Shown here: one piece after another, positions 8,446 to 41,725 of the stretch
Position numbering within the stretch: the first letter of the stretch is position 1
Layout: each line of letters starts with the position of its first letter
Source: Stegostoma tigrinum
Lineage: Eukaryota
Assembly: GCF_030684315.1 (NCBI RefSeq)
Contig: NC_081370.1
Span: forward strand, 5,283,879-5,347,878
Length of the DNA: 64,000 nucleotides
Direction: 5' to 3'
Notes under the pieces: model-generated
What the model saw: the letters and a program-made list of their open reading frames with translations, nothing else
What the model was told of the DNA's origin: nothing
Databases searched by the model: none
Translations under genes and position numbers: made by a program

Positions 8446-10389
8446 CGGAACCTAATACGCAGGTCCCATATCACTTCACAGAGATGTTTACAAAGCAGAA
8501 TTGTGCATTCAGCTCCCGATATAGATATTATCATCTTTGGGTATTTCTGGACGAACAACTGAACAGAGAATTGCAAGGACTGCTGTGCAAGGAATGAGGA
8601 GATTTCCCTTGCCTGAAGTTAGCAAGCCCAATAGACTCATTGCGTGCTGTGACTTTTCTGTAGCCAAAGGCATGAGTAGATTCCAAGGTTGCAGGAGGAA
8701 ATTGGTCAGGAAAAAACACTCCAGACTTTACAGGTAAGGCCCAACACGGAAAGGATTAAAATCGGAAGTGGCCAAGAGGTTAAAATTGGATGTGCAGGTA
8801 TCTCCCCGGACTGTAGATAAATTATTCCTAAATTCGTTTCTCCTCCATGTGTCTCATGACATACTTCTGTCCAACCTGTTTAAAGTGAAACTTACTTTAG
8901 AAGAATTTATCATTACTTCCTCGTTTTATCATACGCATATTTCCTCTCACGAAGTTGCTGACACGGAGGGACCCCGCAGCTCCTAACTCCATTCCAGGTG
9001 CTCGATTTCAGTGCCAGTCGCCAAGTAAGCAATGACACAGATATTGCACTTGGACTGATAGCAATCTGAGTGTTTAATTACCATTACCACAAAACTCACA
9101 GCAATTTCCGCAGGCCACGCAAATGCAGAAGTCTGGAAGGAGACGTGAATCTATGCTCCTCCCCAGAGTGCAACGAGCAATCTATGCATTAGCTGAAACT
9201 CCCTCCCTCTTTCACCGAACAAAAACAATAATCTTGGAAAACTCGCCACTTGTTCAGTGAAGTGTAACTGTCATACAACTATTTGAGAACACGGCGTTAC
9301 ACGATTCTAGCTTCCTGTACAGCTCCTTCACGAGAATTTCACGATTCCCACAGTCGGCCCGGTTAGGTGCTAGGATCAGGAATTCTCTCTCTACACTTCC
9401 TGTTTTCTCTCGCCCTTAGGACACCCATAATTCTACTTCTGATTCAAGCTTTTGAGCAGTCACCCTCCTCTGGCTGACCGTCAAGATGCACCTTGAGACA
9501 TTGATTTACACTAAGAGCCAAACCATCAAAACACTAATAACTCGTTTGTTGGTTCTTGCGACCGAGAATTTCACAATATACCGGTTAGGTAGACATGGGT
9601 AGTGACCAATAGACTACGTAATATCGCTTATGTTTTGAAAACTTGGGCTGAATACCTGTTCAGATTTGAGAAAATAAAGTAGCTGAACTTTCAAAATATG
9701 TTTTCAAGCGACTGTATCAACATTTATCAGCAGGCCATTTCAGATTATTCCACGGCCTCGTCCGTCCCTATCTCTGTATCCTCCACCACAACCATTTGAA
9801 GGATGTTTTTCGAGCAGTGCATTTGTGTACAAACCGTAAACTTGATTTCACGTACAACCCGATCCAATATTCGCGAGTCAGTTACGACTCTTTTTAAAGT
9901 AAAGGAATATCATTAATGGAGTACAGGTTACACTGTACACTTATTACCCACTCCTAATTGCCCTCGAAAATAGTAGTGATCTGGCTTCTTGAACTGGTGC
10001 AATTCATGTACTATAAATGCAGCCACACTGCTGTTTAGGAGTTTTAGGATCTTGACCCAGCAAGATTGAAGGAATGACAGAATGTTTCTACTTCGGGAAG
10101 ATGAGTGGCTTAGAAGTGAAGTGGTAAGTAGTGGAAGTGCTGTGTATCTGATGTTCTTGTTCTTCTAGATGGCAATGGTAATTGGTTTGGAAAGTATTGT
10201 ATAAAGAATCATAGGGAATCTCTGCATTGCACCTTGTCCTATTATCCATCAGTAGTGGAGGGAGCGAACATTAGAAATGTTATTCCCTGCCTTGAAGAAG
10301 TATCAACAAGATGGGAGCAAATTACTGCAGATGCTAGAATCTGAACTGAAATGAAAAAAAAAATACAGATGAACAGCTACAGGAAGGCA

Positions 10390-15986: not shown

Positions 15987-16735
15987 CTGATCATAACAAA
16001 ATTAGAGTTAAAACCAAGTTGTTCATTTCAATGTGATTATGTGTCAGATTGAATACTCACGCATAAAGAAATAAACAAAAAACAAACTTCAACTCAAATA
16101 ATGATTGAATGTTTTGGAAGTAACTCACTACAATGTTGGTAATCAGCTCAGCATTGCCTTTTAGGGCCAAGTGACATGCTGCAGTGGTATTAGTTACCAA
16201 AGACAGTCACTCATCTCAAATGGCTATTCTGAAGTGTCTCCAATTCCTAACTGTATGAGAGAGTGTTACAAACAGTTCACACCAGTGCATAACAATACGT
16301 AGCATTGTCAAAGTAAGCAAATTTATGAAATGCTGCTGATACCCAACCAGACCCAAAAGTGGCAATGCTGATGCTCAAACAGGCTGACACCAAACTTGTA
16401 AACCCACACCTACCATGCACTATGTATCAGAATAAGGATGACAATATTTAACTACTAACATTGAGAATCCTCACTTAGCACTTTTCTTATTTAAAAGACC
16501 CATAAGTAAAACAAGCCCCACTCCAAAATATGACACACAAAGATGAACAAAATCCTGTTAATGCTGGCACACCCATGGCATTTCCCACACTGCTCTGCCA
16601 GTTGCATATTTATACAGCTGCACATTAACTAGTGCATGAAATTTGACTGCACACTTGCATTTTGAATCCGAATCGTCTATACAAACCGGCAGAAGTAGGC
16701 AAGACTATCCAAACAACAAGACAATGAGCACTTAC

Positions 16736-16822
16736 CAACAGCTGCTGCAGCTGGAGCAGCACCAACTGTGGCAGCAGCAGTTGCGACCCCACCAGCTGGG
16801 ACACTTGCAAGTTTGGCATTGC
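16736..16822 (-). CDS. RPLP2: RPLP2 exon 4 (Ala-rich hinge)
   Basis: (G)NAKLASVPAGGVATAAATVGAAPAAAAV; tttag| acceptor and |gtaagt donor; 87 nt, phase 1-1. Confidence 0.96.
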
Positions 16823-17689
16823 CTAAACACAAATTAATTAGTTAACACAACACTGCAGTACACTTTATTGCGCAACCCCCACATCCTGCCCCACACCACT
16901 ACCAGAGACACCAAAAGCTGCATCTCCAACACAGCCTCACAAAGATAAGTTTGCTCCCACAAACAACAATAGAGTGGGACAGAGAAAGAAAAGGGAGAAG
17001 CTAAATTTTAAAAAGTTGGGAGTTGGGATGGTTGTGTTACAGGTAGTTTCTCTGGATGGAAGCAAATAGGAAATTGCAGTTTTCACAGCTGTGGACAGGC
17101 AGGAATAACAGTACAGTCTTTATATTCCCTAGGAGAACACAAAGAAAGGAAACATTCGAAAATTAAGCTTTGGCTTTTTCCATTCTGACATTAAGATAGC
17201 CATAGCTATAAAACTAGGCTTTGTCCAAGACTAAGAGGAGAAATTCTTCACCCCCCCAAAAAAATCACAAATGTTTGGAATTCTCAATTTCAGAGCTCAT
17301 CTGATGCGTATAGTTAAAACAGAGTGGGGGAAAAGTGAATTGCAGCCACAATACTAAAATTTAGAGCTCACTTCATGTACCTACTCCTATTTTTATTTGG
17401 CAAGTTTTTTTTATTTTTGGGTTAACGTAAGTTCTGGGGAACAGATTTCTCCCCCTTTGCAGTTTTAAAATCAAAGAACACCCATCACATTTAATTCCAT
17501 TATGATTTGTAGCACCTATCTTCTCGGTAAAGAATTCAAATATCTCATCAGATTTCCATTATTCCCCTTGCACGTCTCATCCCAACTGTCTTGTTTCATA
17601 TTACTATTACACAATGACCTGGAATCTTCCAGCAAAAGCATAAATCAAAAGAATACTTGTCCAAACATTAAAAACTGAACATCACATAA

Positions 17690-18020
17690 GCCTGGGCACC
17701 ACAACAGCATACTTGCTTCTAAGACAGGACATAAACATAACTGGGGTGCTTTCTTTTGGAAGAAAGATTTAACCAGGCTCCATTCTACTCCCTGAGATGT
17801 GAGCATGAAAAGATCCCAAGACACTAAGTGTGTATGCCCCATGCGTTTAATCAACAGCCATCTTCCTAACAGCAGACAAAAACAGACCATCAGGCCATTT
17901 TCACTTCCACTTGGGAAACCTTGTTACATACAAACTAACTACTTTAATACACTGCAGTGACCGACCTTGGCTGTCTGTAGTAGTTAGTGGTGTTGTGGGG
18001 ATGTGAAAGGCACTTTCTGA
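17690..18020 (+). mobile_element. Degenerate Deu-domain SINE
   Basis: aaagatccca and gggatgtgaaaggcact blocks resemble the DeuSINE core and tail; opposite orientation to the 170-520 copy. Confidence 0.4.
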
Positions 18021-18028
18021 TCCAACAT

Positions 18029-18333
18029 GGGGCGGCATGGCGGCTCAGTGGTTAGCACTGCAGCCTCACAGCACAAGGGGCTGAGGTTCAATTCCAGCCT
18101 TGGGTGGCCGTCTGTGTGGAATTTGCATTCTCCCCAAGTCTGCGTGGGTTTCCACCCACACTCCAAAACATGCAGGCTTGGTGGATTGGCCATGAAAAAT
18201 TTCCCATCATGTTGAGGGCGGTGTACATTAGGTGGGTTACAGGGGGACGGGGCTGCATGGGATGCTCTAAGAGACAGTGTGGGCTTGTTGGGCCGAAGGG
18301 CCTGTTTCCACGCTGTAGGGATTCTGTGATTCT
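18029..18333 (+). mobile_element. HE1-type V-SINE
   Basis: ggggcggcatggcggctcagtggttagcactg head, B box, V-domain and gggattctgtgattct tail. Confidence 0.88.
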
Positions 18334-19619
18334 TTAAGAATAATTATGCATGACTAGCAATAAAGCACAATGACATTCAAGGGAAATAAACAAGCAGTGT
18401 TGGATGTATGGGTGCACCCATAAACAGGGCAGACAACAAAAGCCATGAATATACCAACTAACAAATAATCTCAGAAGCAAAACTATTGCTTTGCAACAAA
18501 TGAAACACCAAAAAGTGCTGTCACGATTGTAACAAAGAAAACAAACAAACAGACACCCAAAAATCCTACTAAGCTGTCGATTAAATAAGGCATTCTACAT
18601 ATGCTGGCTGAGGATGCCAAGGGAATTCTCCCAGGTCTGACTATTGCTATAGGATCAGTGCCCACTTGAGGGAACAGATACAGCCTTGGTTGACATCTTG
18701 AGAGATGCATTCCATATATTTGTATTTCAGCCACAATAGCATGCTTAATTCTGGGGTTTAATCTACACTTGAATCCAGAATACATCACTATACCAAGGCT
18801 GACCATTGTATCTAATTCTCAGTTGACATTTAACAGAAATTAACCCAAATATTTCAACTGTTTATAAACAAGTGAAGCTTGAAGGAGCAACACCAAAGCC
18901 CTCCCAGTCTGAAAACCTAACACTTACACTGAGCTTTTGTTGGATCAAAAACTTTGCACCCTTAATTCCAGCATGTCTTCAAGCCCACAGCTGTCAATTT
19001 TGCAAACCAGTCTACTACGAGGTGCTGTATCACGTGAGTTTAACTTTCTCCCCACACAAACAGCATTCTCACCAACATCCTCCATCATGGCACAGCAATC
19101 AGGTAGGATCATATTTCAAAATTTTAGGTCCTCTCCCACAAAGCCCTCACTCAAAGATCACACTAGATAGCTGGTGCAACTGTGGTAACAATTTCAATCT
19201 CACTTCCTGGCTGAAAAGATCCATCTCTTTAGTATTTGTGACAACCAAGACCATGTGACTTCCATTTCATCACCACCTCAGGGCACAACAACAACAAAAT
19301 TGATTTTGCATTGAATACAGCTCAATTTGGCAATAGTACTGAAAAAAAAAATCAGTTCATCTTGCTATATTCTCCTTAACTTGCACTCTGCTCTTTCTAG
19401 AATAAGATCAAGCCCGACAAACCGTACTTTATGCTTTCCTCTAGATTTCCAGCTTTTAAGTGTACTGATCAGTTATGTGAAGAATAACCTATTTTTCACT
19501 ATTAGTACCCTGACAGAAAATTATGACAGTATGCTTTGGAATAGGGATAAAGTAGTGTGGGGTATGTCCTTTCAGTTGTTGAGTGTTATCTGCATAAAGA
19601 TGTCATAAATCAAAGCTTT

Positions 19620-19865
19620 TAGAGCCATACAACACAGAAATACACTCAGTCCTATTTGTCCATGCTGACCAGGCATTATAAACTGATCTACTCCCATTTG
19701 CCCATTTTTGGCCCATACTCCTCTAAACTTTTCCTATTCACGTACCCATAAAAATGTTTGTTAAATGTTGTAATTGTACCAGCCTCTTCCATTTCCTCGC
19801 AGCTCCTTGCATACACATACAGCCCTCATGAAAGTTACTGTTCACGCCCCTTTCAAATCACTCCC
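19620..19865 (-). mobile_element. CR1 LINE 3' end fragment
   Basis: Reverse complement similar to the 3' part of the 2830-3205 copy (aatgggagtagatcagttta, gcatggacaaatag). Confidence 0.65.
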
Positions 19866-19994
19866 TTGAAGTCCATGGAGCAAAATTCACAACACTGCAA
19901 TTTCAGATTACGAGCTGAACTATGAGTTCTACCAAATCCTGGCACCTTTACATCCGTAAAAACGCCAGCTTCTGTTAATGTCAGACAACAAGTA

Positions 19995-20293
19995 AGGCGG
20001 CAGAGTGGCTCAGTGGTTAGCACTGCAGCCTCACAGCGCCAGGGACCCGGGTTTGATTCCAGACTCAGCTAACTGTGCGGAGTTTGCACATTCTCCCTGT
20101 GTCTGCGTGGGTTTCCTCCGGGTGCTCCGGTTTCCTCCCACAGTCCAAAGGTGTGCAGGTTAGGTGGATCAGCCATGCTAAATTGCCTAGAGTGTTCAGG
20201 GGTGTGCGGATTATAGGGGGATGGGATGCTTCAAGGGGCGGTGTGGACTTGTTGGGCCGAAGGGCCTGTTTCCACACTGTAGGTAATCTAATC
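19995..20293 (+). mobile_element. HE1-type V-SINE (well preserved)
   Basis: A box TGGCTCAGTGG, B box GGTTTGATTCC, V-domain and taatctaatct tail. Confidence 0.9.
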
Positions 20294-20853
20294 TAAAAAA
20301 AACAAAATCAAGACAATAGAAGGACAAGTAACTTAAGAAATAGCTTATAAAAGGTCAAGAGGTTAAAAAGATGACAGAGTTAAGGCCCTGGCAGCTGTCA
20401 AACACAGTCAATGGTGGAATGATGGAAATTGGAGTTTCACAAGCTGTTAGAATTGACAGAACACAAAAATCTTGTTCAGTGTTTGGGCTAGAGGAGGTAG
20501 CCGTTAGGGATTGTTCATGCCACAGATCTGAAAACACGAGAATTTTGAGCATTTCCAAAATGAGATGTAAAGGAGATCAAGAGGCACAGCAAGTGACTGG
20601 AGAAAATGGATTGGCCACAAGTTGAATTTGAAATGTTACCTTCACTTGAGCCTTAATCAAGTTACAGCAGGGCAAAGAGCCCCTTGGTTCAGTAATGGTG
20701 AGATTGCATCTACACTTTCACTAGTGACATTTGTTATGTTATTTTTCACCTCGGTGAAAGTTATGTGCTTACTTAGCAAACCCTCTGGCATTACCTCCAC
20801 AATGATAATGAATCTACTTTGGTAAGATCCACATGTTAAACAAGGTTACTCAC

Positions 20854-20902
20854 CAGCAGCAATGACATCATCTACATTCTTGCCTTTCAACTCACTGATG
20901 AC
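20854..20902 (-). CDS. RPLP2: RPLP2 exon 3
   Basis: VISELKGKNVDDVIAA(G); tttcag| and |gtgagt; 49 nt. Confidence 0.97.
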
Positions 20903-20988
20903 CTGAAATTCAATTAGAATATTAACATTGTTAGAAAAGAGGAAATGCAGCCAATTTCAGCATGCATGTATTCAGAAAGGTACAATAC

Positions 20989-21111
20989 CTTATTCAGTCG
21001 CTCATCATCAGCTTCAATGCCAACACTGTCTAAAATCTTCTTGATGTCCTTTGAAGATGGGGAGGCATTTCCACCCAATACAGCAAGGAGGTAAGCTGCG
21101 ACGTAACGCAT
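20989..21111 (-). CDS. RPLP2: RPLP2 exon 2, coding part with start codon
   Basis: [41 protein letters not shown]; ttttttag|aATG; donor AAG|gtattg. The four coding exons total 336 nt = 111 aa plus stop. Confidence 0.98.
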
Positions 21112-22640
21112 TCTAAAAAAGGAAGAATTTAGCTTCAATTATACTTGTGTATAAAAATTCTTGGAAAAAAAAAGTGTTTTGATTCCTGCCAAGAGCACAA
21201 ACTCCTGATTTCTTTTTCCATTTTGGTTTCCATGGTTTAGCCTTGTTAAAACAAACTTCCATCTATTTGCTAATTCAATTTTTTCTTTTTTTATGCCCTA
21301 ACTCTCCCTTAGCCAGACAGCACTCAGGCCTAACTCCGTAAACACTAGTTAACCTCGCCATACAGGAAATCATACTGGGCTCATACACATTTCCAGAAAC
21401 AGGTACTGTGACAAAATTCAGCAATACACAAATAGTTAGTGAGACCTTAGGCATCATCTTTCTTCTCAGAAGAGCACATACTCAACAATTCATGACCAAT
21501 GTCAGTTTTGCTGTTGGGTCCTCTATATTAAATTCAAAACCACATTAAGGCATCATGAGAGACTTGCACCCAGAACCAATGCCACAAAAATTTGCCCACA
21601 AGTCAGCCAGTGCTAAGATGTCACAAAAGCAGGATAAATCCAGACAGATGGGTTAATTTTTCACCTTTAGATATCAAAGCACTGAAGCCTGCTCAAATTG
21701 TTTCCTCCTCTCGATTTATACTTATTTACTCAGTGAGCATCAGGCAAAGTTAACCTAATTATCAAGCTACCACTACCAAAAGTAGTTAATACAGGTGAAT
21801 TGGTGCACAAACCTAAGAAATCTATCAAATAACATCTTTGGGATAAAGCAGAGAATATAATCAGGGATTTGTTTTTAAATTTCATCCGACAAAACAGAGA
21901 GAAAGGGCTGTTCAGTTGAGGTGGAAGAGGCACAGGGAGGAAGATGTCAAGCGTAATTAGCCTAACAAGCATTTTCACGTTGCATACGCGGACGTGTAAA
22001 ATGGTTCTCTAGCAGCGTGTTGAAAAGCGGTTGTAAGATTTGTTGTAAACTACGTTATCTGCTTCATTGCTCTCCAGCCCACAGCTCCGATTTCAAACAG
22101 GCATTCAAGTCACTAAGCAATCCATTACGTGTTGGCAGAAGTCAAACTGCTTGTCCATACCCAAGAAATTGTGGACAGAAAGCAGCAAACGTGCGGCTTT
22201 ACAACTTGAGGAACATCTTGCAATAGCCTCCAACTCAATCTGAACACTTCCAAGCTGCGCTGAACGGAAGACTACTTTACATGAGTGAGCACCTACCGAG
22301 GCGAGAGAGAATAGTCTGCAAAGGGGAGGCTGCTACTGGAATGGTGCTTTTGCAGCCAACATTGCCTGGAGCCGGCCCTGTGGAACGCGGGCGCTGCCAA
22401 CATTCGGAAAGCGAACGCGGCAGCGTCACAATTGAGAAGGCTCACAAGCACGTGGAGGCCGCGCGGCCTTCACTTCCGGCCGAACCCCCTTTGCCCTTCG
22501 GTGCTCGGTAGCCCTCCGTCAACGAGGCCAGGGCGGCACCGGCGGCGAGGAGAGAAAGAACACGGCTGCCGCTCGAGCCCCTGGTCCGGTAAAATAAAGG
22601 GCGGGGCGGGGGCAAAAACGGGGAAATGCGGCGAACTCAC

Positions 22641-22726
22641 CTGGCGAGCTGGGTGAGGCGCTTGGGAGTGGAGCAGGCCTAGCCTCTGATAACTCCTCAC
22701 GCACTGGGCGCCGGACTGTAAAAGAG
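22641..22726 (-). other. RPLP2: RPLP2 non-coding exon 1 with 5'TOP start
   Basis: Begins at CTCTTTT (22726-22720), ends CAG|GTGAGT, lies in a CpG-rich island; splicing gives the context gccagaATG. Confidence 0.85.
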
Positions 22727-22860: not shown

Positions 22861-23002
22861 GGTAAGCGTTGTAAGGCTGCAGTGAGGATCAGCGTCTGGA
22901 ATCTGAGATAATGGGAACTGCAGATGCTGGAGAATTCCAAGATAATCAAATGTGAGGCTGGATGAACACAGCAGGCCAAGCAGCATCTCAGGAGCACAAA
23001 AG

Positions 23003-23032
23003 CTGACGTTTCGGGCCTAGACCCTTCATCAG
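23003..23032 (-). ncRNA. Minimal type I hammerhead ribozyme motif (PLE-associated)
   Basis: CTGATGA-a-GGGtctaggCCC-GAAAC-GTC-ag: CUGANGA and GAAA cores, stem II, palindromic ACGT stem III and GUC cleavage triplet; stem I only about 2 bp. Confidence 0.75.
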
Positions 23033-24353
23033 AGAGGGGGATGGGGAGAGGGAACTGGAATAAATAGGGAGAGAGGGGGAGGCGGACCGAAGATGGAGAG
23101 TAAAGAAGATAGGTGGAGAGTGAAGGTGGGGAGGTAGGGAGGGGATAGGTCAGTCCAGGGAAGACGTACAGGTCAAGGAGGTGGGATGAGGTTAGTAGGT
23201 AGATGGGGGTGCGGCTTGGTGTGGGAGGAAGGGATGGGTGAGAGGAAGAACCGGTTAGGGAGGCAGAGACAGGTTGGACTGGTTTTGGGATGCAGTGGGT
23301 GGGGGGGGGGGGGGGGGGGGGGAAGAGCTGGGCTGGTTGTGTGGTGCAGTGGGGGGAGGGGACGAACTAGGCTGGTTTAGGGATGCAGTAGGGGAAGGGG
23401 AGATTTTGAAACTGGTGAAGTCCACATTGATACCATATGGCTGCAGGGTTCCCAGGCAGAATATGAGTTGCTGTTCCTGCAACCTTCGGGTGGCATCATT
23501 GTGGCAGTGCAGGAGGCCCATGATGGACATGTCATCTAGAGAATGGGAGGGGGAGTGGAAATGGTTTGCGACTGGGAGGTGCAGTTGTTTGTTGCGAACT
23601 GAGCGGAGGTGTTCTGCAAAGCGGTCTCCAAGCCTCCGCTTGGTTTCCCCAATGTAGAGGAAGCCGCACCGGGTACAATGGATGCAGTATACCACATTGG
23701 CAGATGTGCAGGTGAACCTCTGCTTAATGTGGAATGTCATCTTGGCGATAGGGGTGAGGGAGGTGGTGTGGGGACTAGTGTAGCATTTCCTGCGGTTGCA
23801 GGGGAAGTTGCCGGGTGTGGTGGGGTTGGAGGGCAGTGTGGAGTGAACAAGGGAGTCACGGAGAGAGTGGTCTCTCCGGAAAGCAGACAGGGGAGGGGAT
23901 GGAAAAATGTCTTGGGTGGTGGGGTCAGATTGTAAATGGCGGAAGTGTCAGAGGATGATGCGTTGTATCCGGAGGTTGGTAGGGTGGTGTGTGAGAACGA
24001 GGGGGATCCTCTTAGGGCAGTTGTGGCGGGGGCGGGGTGTGAGGGATGTGTTGCGGGAAATACGGGAGACGCGGTCAAGGGCGTTCTCGCTCACTGTGGG
24101 GGGAAAGTTGCGGTCCTTAAAGAACTTGGACATCTGGGACGTCTTATCGTGGGAGCAGATGCGGCGGAGGCGGAGGAATTGGGAATAGGGGATGGAATTT
24201 TTGCAGGAGGGTGGGTGGGAGAAGGTGTATTCTAGGTAGCTGTGTGAGTCGGTTGGCTTGAAATGGACATCAGTTACAAGCTGGTTGCCCGAGATGGAGA
24301 CTGAGAGGTCCAGGAAGGTGAGGGATTCCAGCTCCCTCTCCCCATCCCCCTCT

Positions 24354-24383
24354 CTGATGAAGGGTCTAGGCCCGAAACGTCAG
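24354..24383 (+). ncRNA. Minimal type I hammerhead ribozyme motif (inverted pLTR copy)
   Basis: ctgatgaagggtctaggcccgaaacgtcag, identical to the 23003-23032 copy. Confidence 0.75.
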
Positions 24384-25286
24384 CTTTTGTGCTCCTTAGA
24401 TGCTGCTTGGCCTGCTGTGTTCATCCAGCCTCACATTTTATTAGCGTCTGGAATCTGTCATTTTAGCAATGGGACTTCAATAAGTTATTGTGAACATGTC
24501 CTTGGTGTCTCTCTGGAGGACTGAGAGCAGAAGGATACTTTTGATTTTCCTGTCTCCGTGCAAATAGAAACTTCAGAAGCCTTTCACTGCGGCTGATAGA
24601 TATAAAAATATTACTACGTTGTCTATGATAGCCACACGTTCAATCTTATACGCAGATCTCTATTAAAACCAATATATCAAACGCATACTGAACGCAAAAT
24701 ACATGAACCTGAATATTTTAACCCGCAAGATTCCTTTTAGGATTGGTAGGAAACCGTTAAAATGTGCAACTTGGCCATTATTCTTAACTTGCTTTCATTG
24801 TTTATGACTTGCTATGAAGATTGTCTCAAGAGAAGGATTATGAGCCACAGAGTCTTTCGTCACCTCATCTCTGTGTAGAGGTTTTGCCGACAAAACCAAG
24901 TTTGCATCCTGAACAATATGCCTTCCTTATAATTAAACTGCTAACCACATTGATATCCATATTTCAGTCCGACATCTGCAGGTTTATGAAATGTAATCCA
25001 TGTTATTATAATAGTGGACATTTGTAATATACAACTTACATTGTGATGCAAAGTAACAAAATTTAAATAGCCCTATAGAGTTAATTATGCCCAGAACCAT
25101 CCTGTCACTATGCCATGAACGTATTTGTTTTATGAAAAGAGTTCACAGAATTACTGTGGAAACATTCCAGATTTCTCATCTGCCAGCTTTAGGAGTACAG
25201 TGCTCAAAAGTTCAAAATAATGTACATGGAAACACTAAGTTAAAACATATATATTACACTAATCAAAGTAATATCTTGGAAAATTA

Positions 25287-25417: not shown

Positions 25418-26220
25418 TTAGTTCTTTTCCATCCTCCATACCCACAGCACATGATGGAGTCTTTCCTTGTGCAGGAGTCTTATGTGAGAATTGTGAACTA
25501 TTCCTGGCACCACAGCTGTTAAACCAGAAATCATGTTTTCATGGGTTAATGGCAAGCCTGCCCTACACATATGCCTAGTAACTTGCTCTAACCATGATTC
25601 CACATATCGTATTGCAGAGTCCAATTGATAATAACATGCCTGTAGCTTCCCCCTGGCCAAAGCTATCATGTGCCATCCTCCACAGCTAGTAAAGCAATTC
25701 ACCAGTCACTCCACAGTAGCAATGATGAACGGTTTGCTCAGGTCCTTGTTAGGTTAAGTACCATGTGACATTCACTTTAGCAGTTTATATACATAAAAGA
25801 CAGAGTGACTTAACTTCAGGCTAACTGGTAATGTATGGTATTTTCAATTTCTATCCAAATTTCAAGTATCAAGCAAATTTGCATTTTAAAAACATTTTCC
25901 TGCAGATTCATGCATTAAAATCAGAAACATCAAGAATAGCTTGTTTGTAATGTCGTAGCCTGTCAGTTGGTTGACAAGTGAGAATGCTGTGAGCACTTTA
26001 TTACTTAATAATATAAAGCTGAGTCATCTCAATATTTGCTCACTATTGTAACAAACTCAAATAAAACAATCAAATAAAGCTTACTTTCTTAGACTTCAAT
26101 TTAAATCATGTTGACAAAAACTAAAGGCAAGTGTTCTGCCATTTCACCAGATTAGTTTCAATAGGCATTTGGCTTCTGGATTACAATACTGTAGTACTGT
26201 GGGATATCAAATTATATCAA

Positions 26221-27512: not shown

Positions 27513-28238
27513 TGCACGCCTCACACAATTATGATTCTGCTGCAAATGCCTCCCCCACTTAGAAGTTTGTTAACTTTTGATCGATAAAGTGCCATTCAGT
27601 TTAACCCACTCTTGCAGCTGTTGATCCCTAACTCTGTAGCCAGTTACAGAATCTCAAGCGCACATGCAACCTACACAGCAATTTCAGAACGATCGGGTCT
27701 AGTTCTCTTACTTGATATACATAAACATAAAAGCGACAGATTTACCAAGAACTCCAGCTCGTTCAGGCGCCATTTGCTAAGCATTTGGCGCGAGAACTCG
27801 TGGATCTAGGTTTGAAGGCTCGGTGACGTACCATCTGTTGCTCTGAGAGAGTTCAGGTGGGCAGAGGTCACAGCTCAGACAAGGAAGCGCGACACAGGGA
27901 GGGCCAGTGCAACTTTTAAGTTCAACCACCATGACCAGGGGAGTGAGCGCCGAAGCAAAGGTATTCTAGCCGCTGTGGAACGTTTGTATTATCTTAACAT
28001 TCTAGCGATGGAACGCCGGAAAGTCGTAACATTCTATACTTGGAACTTGGCAACATAGTAACTCCCATTCATTGGGACACTGTCGTGAGGCGGGAAGGCA
28101 TAAGCCCGCGGGCGCTTCCCAATACTCTGGTGAGACAGCACTGTAACCACATCCCGCAGTCACCCGGACACTGCTTTAACCCAGTCGGAGCCGTTTCATT
28201 TCGGAAAAAAAGACTTTGTAAGCAAATCGCCTACTCAC

Positions 28239-28291
28239 CACTGATTCTTCTGCACGGAGTGAACTTATGTTGACGAGGTATCAGGAAAAAG
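28239..28291 (-). ncRNA. Candidate first exon of a 5'TOP non-coding transcript divergent from PIDD1
   Basis: TATATAGAAA (28325-28316) about 30 nt upstream of CTTTTTCCT (28291-28283); donor GTG|GTGAGT (28238-28233); CpG-rich; no ATG in the exon. Confidence 0.55.
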
Positions 28292-28299
28292 CTTGTACT

Positions 28300-28465
28300 T
28301 TCTTGGCCACGAAACTTTCTATATAGGCCGAATGCCTTTGGTCTGTTTTCGAGAAGTTCGTGACTTTTTTTTTTAAAAGCCTATTCATTCTTAAATAACT
28401 GTCATCTTACGCTGATGTATGCGTAACTACTGCAGTGGGGTCTAAAACATTATTGACTTCCGGAC
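28300..28465. promoter_or_regulatory. Probable bidirectional CpG-rich promoter (PIDD1 on plus, TOP transcript on minus)
   Basis: Minus-strand TATA-like box, ETS/GABP ACTTCCGG at 28456-28463, YY1-like AACATGGCG at about 28579; outward-facing strong splice donors on both sides. Confidence 0.6.
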
Positions 28466-28516
28466 ATGAAAACACCGACGCTGCTTAAAGGATCGTTATC
28501 CCCTGCTTAGAGGAAA
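28456..28516 (+). other. PIDD1: Probable PIDD1 non-coding exon 1 (TSS approximate)
   Basis: Donor AAA|GTAAGT at 28517 in the nearest CpG-rich region upstream of the PIDD1 coding exons; head-to-head with RPLP2 as in human. Confidence 0.6.
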
Positions 28517-29385
28517 GTAAGTGGGTTTTTTGGCATTGGCGGGGAATTAAAGGAGCTGGCTCAGTGTTAACTTGCATTAACATGGCGCCTTTAATGGGGA
28601 GAATTCCTTCAGCTTCATGATAAAGCACGAGGAAAGCGAGAGAGATTAGTACGGCCAAAAGAAGCTTGGTCGATGAGATGATCTTTTGACAATGAATGCA
28701 TTTTCGCTTCGTTTGTGCATTGCGACATTACAAATTGACTACATTTAATCGTGAAGTAATTAATGTAATGTAGCAAATAATTATAATTAAATAAGCAAAT
28801 GTGGTAACTACATTTAAGGCGCCGGCATCAACCACTAATGAATGTTAAAAGCCAAAAGAACTGCGATATTAGTAAATCAGAAATAAATAAAAATTGCGAG
28901 GGGGAAAACTCAGCAGGTCTGGTAGCATCTGTGCTAAGAAATCAGAGTTAACGAGGGTCACTCGACGAAACGTTAACTCTAATTTCTCTCCACAAATGCA
29001 GCCAGACTTGAGCTTGTGCAGCAATTTCTATTTGTCAATTAATATTCGTTGATGTTGCTGGAGAACTTAACTTTTCCAGAGGTGTCACCTGCTTGAAACT
29101 GACCTTCCGACCAGGTATTCGTCCTGTCAGTGACCGCGTCTGTTTCCATCTCGCTAATATCACCCAACTTCGTCCCTTCCTCGATTCATCTGTTACTGAA
29201 ATCCCTCATCCTCAACTTTTTTTGTTTTTTTAAAAAAAAATCCCGCTTTGGCTATTACAACATACTCCTGACTAGACTCAATAGTCTGAGTTCGGCCCAA
29301 ACTGGGGATGACTGGTAGTCACTTCAGCTGAGGGTCACCACGCCCCAAACAAGGAATGGCTGTGAAGACAGCGCCTTCGTGGTAG

Positions 29386-40660: not shown

Positions 40661-41725
40661 TTGCTCCTAAGTCATGGCACAAGTCAGGATCTATGATAGC
40701 TCCTTCCAAACTCAACTCCCACCACCTAGAATGACAAGGGCAGTAGTTACCAAGAATGGTAATACATGCTATCTGTAAGTACCCTTCCAAGCCACAGCCC
40801 ACCCTGAAATGGAAATATATAGTTGTCCCTTCACTGTCATTGTTACAAAACTCTGGAACTGCCTCCTTGTCAATGTGTACCAGCATCACATGGACTGCAA
40901 CTGTTCACAAATGCAGTTCACCAGCTTTTCAAAGACATTTAAGAGTGTGCACTAAATACTGACCCAGGAAGAAGTGCCCATGTACCATGAAAGCACGAAA
41001 CAGTCTCCTGGGAGGCCTGTCCAATACATATCCCTTAGATAACCACTATAACAGATTATCTGACCATTGCAGCTTGGGATCTTGCTGAATGCAGTATGGC
41101 TGCTCTACTGCCCCAAATTGCTACTGTGGCTACATTTCAATTATCTGTCATTGACTTTAAAGTGATTTGAGTTATGCTAAGTATACGAAAGCCCAATACA
41201 AAAGGAAACTTCTCTTTGTCAGCATACATAGTCCCTTTTCATATATATACACCAGTCAGGTGAGTCATACAGCACAGAAACAGGACCTTCAACCCAAATT
41301 ATCCATGCCAACTAGATTTCCTAAACTAAACTAGTTCCTTTTGGCCCATATCCCTCTTAAACCTCTCCTATCCATGTACCTGTCCTAATGTCTTTTGTAT
41401 GTTATAATTGCACCCATCAAGTGCAGTATACTTTACTACTTTCCTCACTGAATAACATGTCCCTATTTCCCCATGAACAAACTTACTGGAAAGCTATGGA
41501 CTCTGTCAGCCCTTTCAATTAGGAGAACAAACTAGACAACATGCATAATATGATTTATTTTGCCCTATTGTGGAAGTACCACAAACGAATTTAATTTTCG
41601 GTTGTCTTGTTTTGCCAATTATGCAGGCTGCAGCCTTCTCTCGAGGGAGAAATCTTGTGGAAAACACCAGCCATCTGACCAACATGTCAGAACATGCATC
41701 TCTCGATGCTGAGCGATGGTAAAAG

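Follow-up and report, generated by a model that had tools for sequence, protein, structure and literature searches.

Introduction

Divergent lncRNAs that lie less than 500 bp from a coding gene are a described class with fast turnover (PMC4739325), and the U1/PAS control of transcription direction has been reviewed (PMC4085477). For transcripts that begin at a TCT element, the consensus is YC+1TYTYY with a TATA box at -32 to -28 (PMC5580651).

The site analysed here resembles the divergent class in position, as it lies on the opposite strand, less than 500 bp from the predicted start of PIDD1 and in the same CpG island. A literature survey of titles and abstract openings returned none describing a PIDD1–RPLP2 intergenic transcript in sharks; annotation databases may hold an lncRNA model for the candidate.

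Locus organization and gene order

The window, a stretch of 64,000 nt from Stegostoma tigrinum located in the genome at G000:C20:5283879-5347878, carries in order a patatin gene (minus strand, ~7.9 kb), RPLP2 (minus), the candidate (minus) and a gene with LRR and ZU5 domains (plus). From domains and synteny, we take the patatin gene to be PNPLA2 and the LRR and ZU5 gene to be PIDD1. RPLP2 is a single-copy gene in this genome and its protein matches P2 structures (E 5e-19). We assume that mammalian, including human, PIDD1 and RPLP2 stand head-to-head on a common promoter. The features that frame the candidate are as follows.

20989..21112, minus strand: RPLP2 first coding exon, ATG at 21111
22641..22726, minus strand: RPLP2 own first exon, with CCAAT and GC boxes, a TATA-like element at -30, CTCTTTT at 22726 and a donor of 12.6 bits at 22640
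22905..24443, no strand assigned: retroelement insertion of 1.5 kb that splits the upstream flank of the RPLP2 island and has a 15-bp target-site duplication
27521..29200, no strand assigned: CpG island from which both PIDD1 and the candidate would start, with the higher GC content on the candidate side
28351..28516, plus strand: likely PIDD1 first exon (predicted start), ETS motif at 28457, donor AAA/GTAAGT at 28517

Several further observations concern the flanking genes. The likely PIDD1 leader has an upstream ORF of 14 codons within exon 1 (28465-28510, plus strand) and several ATGs shortly ahead of the main start (41629-41725, plus strand), and its first donor carries a T>C allele at position +6 (28522) in DNA runs. 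A PIDD1 LRR query used in the search for relatives returned two loci at 39-41% identity, which were not taken as orthologues, and no p53 response element with two or fewer mismatches was found in 27-42 kb. Another CpG-rich stretch at 8800-10000, with a minus-strand pyrimidine tract at 9142 and a donor, lies upstream of the patatin gene and is likely its first exon.

Core promoter motifs and CpG island

The elements listed in the preliminary description, namely the TATA element, the pyrimidine tract, a 53-nt exon with its GTGAGT donor, the 27972-27832 segment, a donor at 26084 and an AATAAA, are all present on the minus strand at the positions given there.

28318..28325, minus strand: TATA element TATATAGA with a palindromic TATATA core; the plus strand reads TATATAGG from 28320
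28239..28291, minus strand: candidate exon 1, 53 nt, starting with C and 8 pyrimidines (TCT 6/7); possible YR starts at 28296 and 28294
28233..28238, minus strand: candidate exon-1 donor GTG/GTGAGT, scoring 9.4 bits with an approximate matrix and thus among the top 0.3% of GTs on the minus strand
27973..28238, minus strand: candidate intron 1, 266 nt, in which no snoRNA was found; at 28061 one allele has an 18-bp deletion
27832..27972, minus strand: candidate exon 2, 141 nt, weak ttccacag acceptor, donor ATG/GTACGT of 7.4 bits, reached by a 33-codon frame that opens with ATG
27743..27811, no strand assigned: imperfect inverted repeat with E2F-type (TTTGGCGC) and YY1-type (ATGGCG) motifs, both strands folding equally
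25997..26002, minus strand: candidate 3' end AATAAA, the first AATAAA/ATTAAA downstream of the start, at 2289 nt

The minus-strand TATA, TATATAGAAA, begins at 28325 and the C-pyrimidine tract, CTTTTTCCT, at 28291. Its first T therefore sits at -34 relative to C28291 rather than the ~30 nt described earlier, whereas the TATA of GAS5 in the same genome sits at -30. The C followed by 8 pyrimidines forms a 9-nt run of the kind that defines a 5'TOP, and this part of the proposed 5'TOP start stands. The candidate departs from the TCT/TATA consensus in its 6/7 match, its G at -1 and its TATA at -34; RPLP2 likewise scores 6/7, while GAS5 and RPL32 both reach 7/7. Because the distance from the TATA favours a YR start on A28296 or A28294, and given the G at -1, the TOP status of the candidate is uncertain. 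On the PIDD1 strand, a YR start at G28351 places the same TATATA at -31, so that it would fit a PIDD1 start equally well.

The island is pronounced, with a CpG o/e of 0.91 over 27521-28900 against a window median of 0.27. Its GC content is 0.49 on the candidate side versus 0.38 on the other (Fisher p 1e-4), an asymmetry that among three control promoters is present at RPLP2 and absent at GAS5 and RPL32 (1/3). Two composite patterns of these motifs were defined post hoc, after the site had been seen, so that their rarity figures flatter it: the strict composite matches at this site alone when both strands of 84 kb are searched, where 60 Markov simulations lead one to expect 0.17 matches per 64 kb, and the looser composite has three matches in 264,898 strand-bases, namely this site, the GAS5 promoter and 18863, the last outside any CpG island. 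A search of metagenome contigs with the exon-1 pattern gave no match.

These data bear on a sceptical account, in which the motifs fell together by chance inside the PIDD1 island, PIDD1 is the gene that uses the TATA, and minus-strand output is limited to a short, unstable upstream-antisense RNA. The palindromic TATATA with its ideal plus-strand spacing suits this account, as do the -34 spacing and the G at -1, both off the consensus of PMC5580651, the weak exon-2 acceptor, a strand skew indistinguishable from zero (below) and the non-island match to the looser composite, which shows that a chance origin is possible. Against it, a composite is expected by chance in a given 1.4-kb strand with a probability of ~0.002-0.016, the minus side of the island is the GC-richer one, and no polyA hexamer occurs over 2.3 kb. 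On balance we consider chance motifs an unlikely explanation. The sequence evidence suggests that the TATA/pyrimidine/donor composite is unlikely to be accidental and that the promoter-like unit is probably real, which supports the earlier proposal of such a unit facing away from PIDD1; the unit lies within the common CpG island.

The inverted repeat at 27811-27743 was examined separately. Its folding z of -3.3 was selected as the best among ~93 windows, and the longer 226-nt fold gives a z of 0.0. As a SECIS element it was rejected, with a core of ACGA instead of AUGA and no Rfam match; that reading also lacks an ORF, as in exons 1-2 no frame opened by an ATG runs through a TGA. Its interpretation as a miRNA or an H/ACA arm was rejected as well.

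Structure and coding potential of the candidate transcript

Beyond the strong first donor, two more donors lie within 600 nt. The boundaries proposed for a second exon (27972-27832) are present, but its acceptor is weak: it scores 2.4 bits with approximate splice-site matrices, and 18% of minus-strand AGs score the same or better. Three real RPLP2 acceptors score 1.8-2.3 bits with these matrices, no better than that of exon 2. Better-scoring acceptors are found at 28126, 27415 and 27123; given these and the weak acceptor, the exon chain beyond exon 1 is uncertain. The further minus-strand donor AAA/GTAAGC at 26084 and the AATAAA at 26002 both exist as proposed, but the donor lies 82 nt ahead of the AATAAA, so that a single transcript cannot use both.

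The claim that no recognisable protein is encoded was borne out. Stop-to-stop frames in 24.4-29.3 kb reach at most 110 aa, and the candidate has no conserved ORF. A 51-aa ATG frame found no homologue among proteins of 28-90 aa, on which ground a micropeptide was rejected, and its first 33 aa matched no Pfam family. In a search for retrocopies recording a spliced form, the candidate exons, RPLP2 exon 1 and the RPLP2 coding exon returned self matches alone. The 18-bp deletion at 28061 in intron 1 was present in contigs of 4/4 DNA runs (two samples at most, one study), which is mild evidence against constraint there.

Strand skew and polyadenylation signals

Minus-strand keto skew amounts to 0.105 in RPLP2 introns, 0.094 in GAS5 and 0.103 in RPL32 (the latter two unmasked). 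Across 24.4-27.5 kb (2424 unmasked bases) it is 0.035, about one third of the RPLP2 or GAS5 value, so that this segment does not behave like an RPLP2 intron (0.035 vs 0.105; z 2.9, p 0.004). The candidate value is close to that of PIDD1 intron 1 (0.039) and is not significantly above zero (TA p 0.44, GC p 0.08). Such low skew argues against a strong, old germline transcript of the SNHG type or a main RPLP2 intron.

PolyA hexamers in the same 2424 unmasked bases number one in sense and six in antisense orientation, an asymmetry that is not significant alone, and the gap of 2289 nt to the first hexamer was matched by 7.5% of 5000 random starts. Skew, hexamers and GC content together offer weak hints that lean towards minus-strand transcription.

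Search for hosted snoRNAs

The preliminary description offered a snoRNA host gene as one reading of the candidate, and covariance-model screens of the kind it called for in 24.5-28.2 kb did not bear this out. Rfam gave no match at gathering score in the whole window; 11 weak matches in 14-30 kb, none of them a credible snoRNA inside the candidate; three matches in 24.5-28.3 kb, of which two were snoRNA models at E 5 and 6.2; and none at E 10 in 27.5-28.3 kb. As a positive control we used GAS5 of the same genome, located through SNORD47 (G000:C242 near 187800-193100), which has its TATA at -30 and a perfect TCT. The same search returned 12 matches there, representing seven distinct plus-strand snoRNA loci, with SNORD74, 75, 79, 47 and 81 among them; three exceeded the gathering score and six had E<0.001.

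A search for C/D boxes, with the 18S and 28S of this genome as its guide targets, found 23 C/D box pairs in GAS5, where five boxes combined a C box with a guide, whereas the candidate yielded two pairs from one degenerate C box (26030), none with an 18S/28S guide of at least 10 nt. For H/ACA guides, the scanner gave 10.5 in the candidate region, with 9.5 for the SNORA7 control and 10.5-13.5 for simulated sequences, so that the control itself is not separable from simulations; H/ACA-shaped candidates fold no better than shuffles (z -1.4 to +0.7).

A true host of the SNHG/GAS5 class could nevertheless carry an intronic H/ACA or scaRNA too diverged for Rfam. Its promoter layout would be like that of GAS5 in this genome, and Rfam H/ACA models do score weakly here, as shown by SNORA7 in RPL32 (36.5 bits against a cut-off of 100). 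SNORA52, which human RPLP2 presumably hosts, gave no match at E 10 in the RPLP2 introns (15990-22640) and has no clear location elsewhere, the best of 45/65,585 candidates scored in a weak genome search reaching 28 bits; snoRNAs are also described as switching hosts (PMC13736004). Opposing this, no snoRNA family in the region scored better than E 5, a 36-bit match would have shown up, the degenerate C box and the shuffle-like folds compare poorly with the GAS5 control, intron 1 carries a deletion allele, and the exons are longer and the skew weaker than in GAS5. We regard a snoRNA host as distinctly improbable, and the putative divergent RNA probably carries no snoRNA.

Two side observations come from the RPL32 control (L014 873-3000, G000:C13): the gene has a TOP first exon with the diverged SNORA7 match in intron 1, and a probable processed copy lies at C41:19950221-19950533.

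The RPLP2 promoter and a possible distal first exon

RPLP2 has a complete and separate promoter 5.6 kb downstream of the candidate, within a second CpG island (21.9-22.9 kb), and its own first exon gives the coding exon an agaATG context. A distal exon is thus not needed to provide RPLP2 with a TOP start. The retroelement, inserted ~180 bp upstream of the RPLP2 start, has terminal repeats with a CTGATGA...GAAA motif. The candidate island was also considered as a duplicate of the RPLP2 promoter and rejected, the two islands being without sequence similarity (p 0.25-0.93).

Candidate exon 1 might still serve as a distal RPLP2 first exon, spliced from 28239 to 22715 (a hybrid internal exon) and then to 21112, with PIDD1 and RPLP2 on a common promoter. 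The two lie on the same strand, and CTTTTTCC is a ribosomal-protein-type start. The RPLP2 TOP tract doubles as an acceptor at 22715 (9.1 bits, top 1%), and the resulting route is, as a sequence possibility, a 129-nt leader without upstream ATG; joining at 22715 restores agaATG and removes the earlier objection that a distal exon would give the poorer gtgaATG. Hybrid exons usually have their starts centred on the 3' splice site (PMC11797052), and one human E-box has been placed near both RPLP2 and PIDD1 (PMC10620128). However, the RPL32 TOP tract scores likewise as an acceptor (8.9 bits), which makes this property generic and the 22715 route a possibility rather than evidence. The complete promoter at RPLP2 itself, the significantly lower skew in 24.4-27.5 kb, the two intervening AATAAA (26002, 24442), the dissimilarity of the islands and the upstream ATGs that candidate exon 2 would bring into the leader also weigh against it, and we judge a distal RPLP2 exon rather unlikely. 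In a hypothetical 27832>21112 junction, the 33-codon frame of exon 2 would stop right before the RPLP2 ATG, probably a coincidence.

A more specific form of this idea is that this shark has two tandem TOP promoters, the PIDD1-linked one being the counterpart of the mammalian head-to-head arrangement and splicing 5.5 kb into the RPLP2 first exon. We hold this to be a speculative and quite doubtful proposal; if true, the tandem promoters would tie part of ribosomal P2 production to the PIDD1 promoter, and the locus would record ribosomal-gene promoter trading during vertebrate evolution.

Proposed origin and fate of the transcript

The site combines a CpG island, core promoter motifs and a splice donor with no ORF, no known snoRNA family and a separate RPLP2 promoter. 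Our tentative preference is that it forms the divergent half of the CpG-island promoter of PIDD1, with a modestly expressed, short, spliced non-coding RNA directed towards RPLP2 as its likely product. Pol II would load at the TATA and initiate at 28296-28291 with mixed YR and C starts, so that a 5'TOP would be confined to a fraction of the molecules. Protection from early termination would come from U1, bound at 28238, 27831 and 27711. The RNA would be spliced once or more and end at the AATAAA at 26002, near 25980, with NMD or the exosome then degrading it. Any role would be exerted in cis, the RNA being a by-product or a tuner of the PIDD1 promoter. A by-product would not need anything as elaborate as a TATA with a TOP-like start, which favours the SNHG or RPLP2 alternatives.

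Comparison with known systems

Like the divergent lncRNAs described in PMC4739325, the candidate lies on the opposite strand, a few hundred bases from a coding start, in a common island and without an ORF, and its strongest signal is in the first exon. It differs in having a TATA and TOP-like core and in facing a ribosomal protein gene at a distance of 5.6 kb, and is described here from DNA sequence. An ordinary divergent non-coding transcript from a real promoter-like feature is probably the appropriate description; it would then add a further unannotated case to a common class and be of modest interest.

With GAS5 and other SNHG hosts, the candidate shares a TATA, a C-pyrimidine start, a short first exon, a strong donor and the lack of an ORF. 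Unlike GAS5, it has no detected snoRNA, its TATA is at -34 rather than -30, its TCT match is 6/7 rather than 7/7 and its skew is 0.035 rather than 0.094; as a detectable snoRNA, the defining feature tested, is missing, we do not place it in the GAS5/SNHG class. A TOP-type non-coding gene without snoRNA cargo would matter more than a common divergent lncRNA.

The closest promoter analogy may be with dual-initiation YR and TCT/TOP promoters (PMC6954239), as the candidate has YR dinucleotides at -29 and -31 from TATA, a few bases from the C-pyrimidine start, although this C start is G-C and not Y-C. Finally, as in the hybrid first-internal exons of PMC11797052, the RPLP2 start overlaps a strong 3' splice site and has a same-strand promoter upstream, an overlap that is read from sequence and that the RPL32 TOP tract shares as a generic property. 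Were the candidate a second RPLP2 promoter tied to PIDD1, it would show a step in the origin of the mammalian PIDD1/RPLP2 arrangement.
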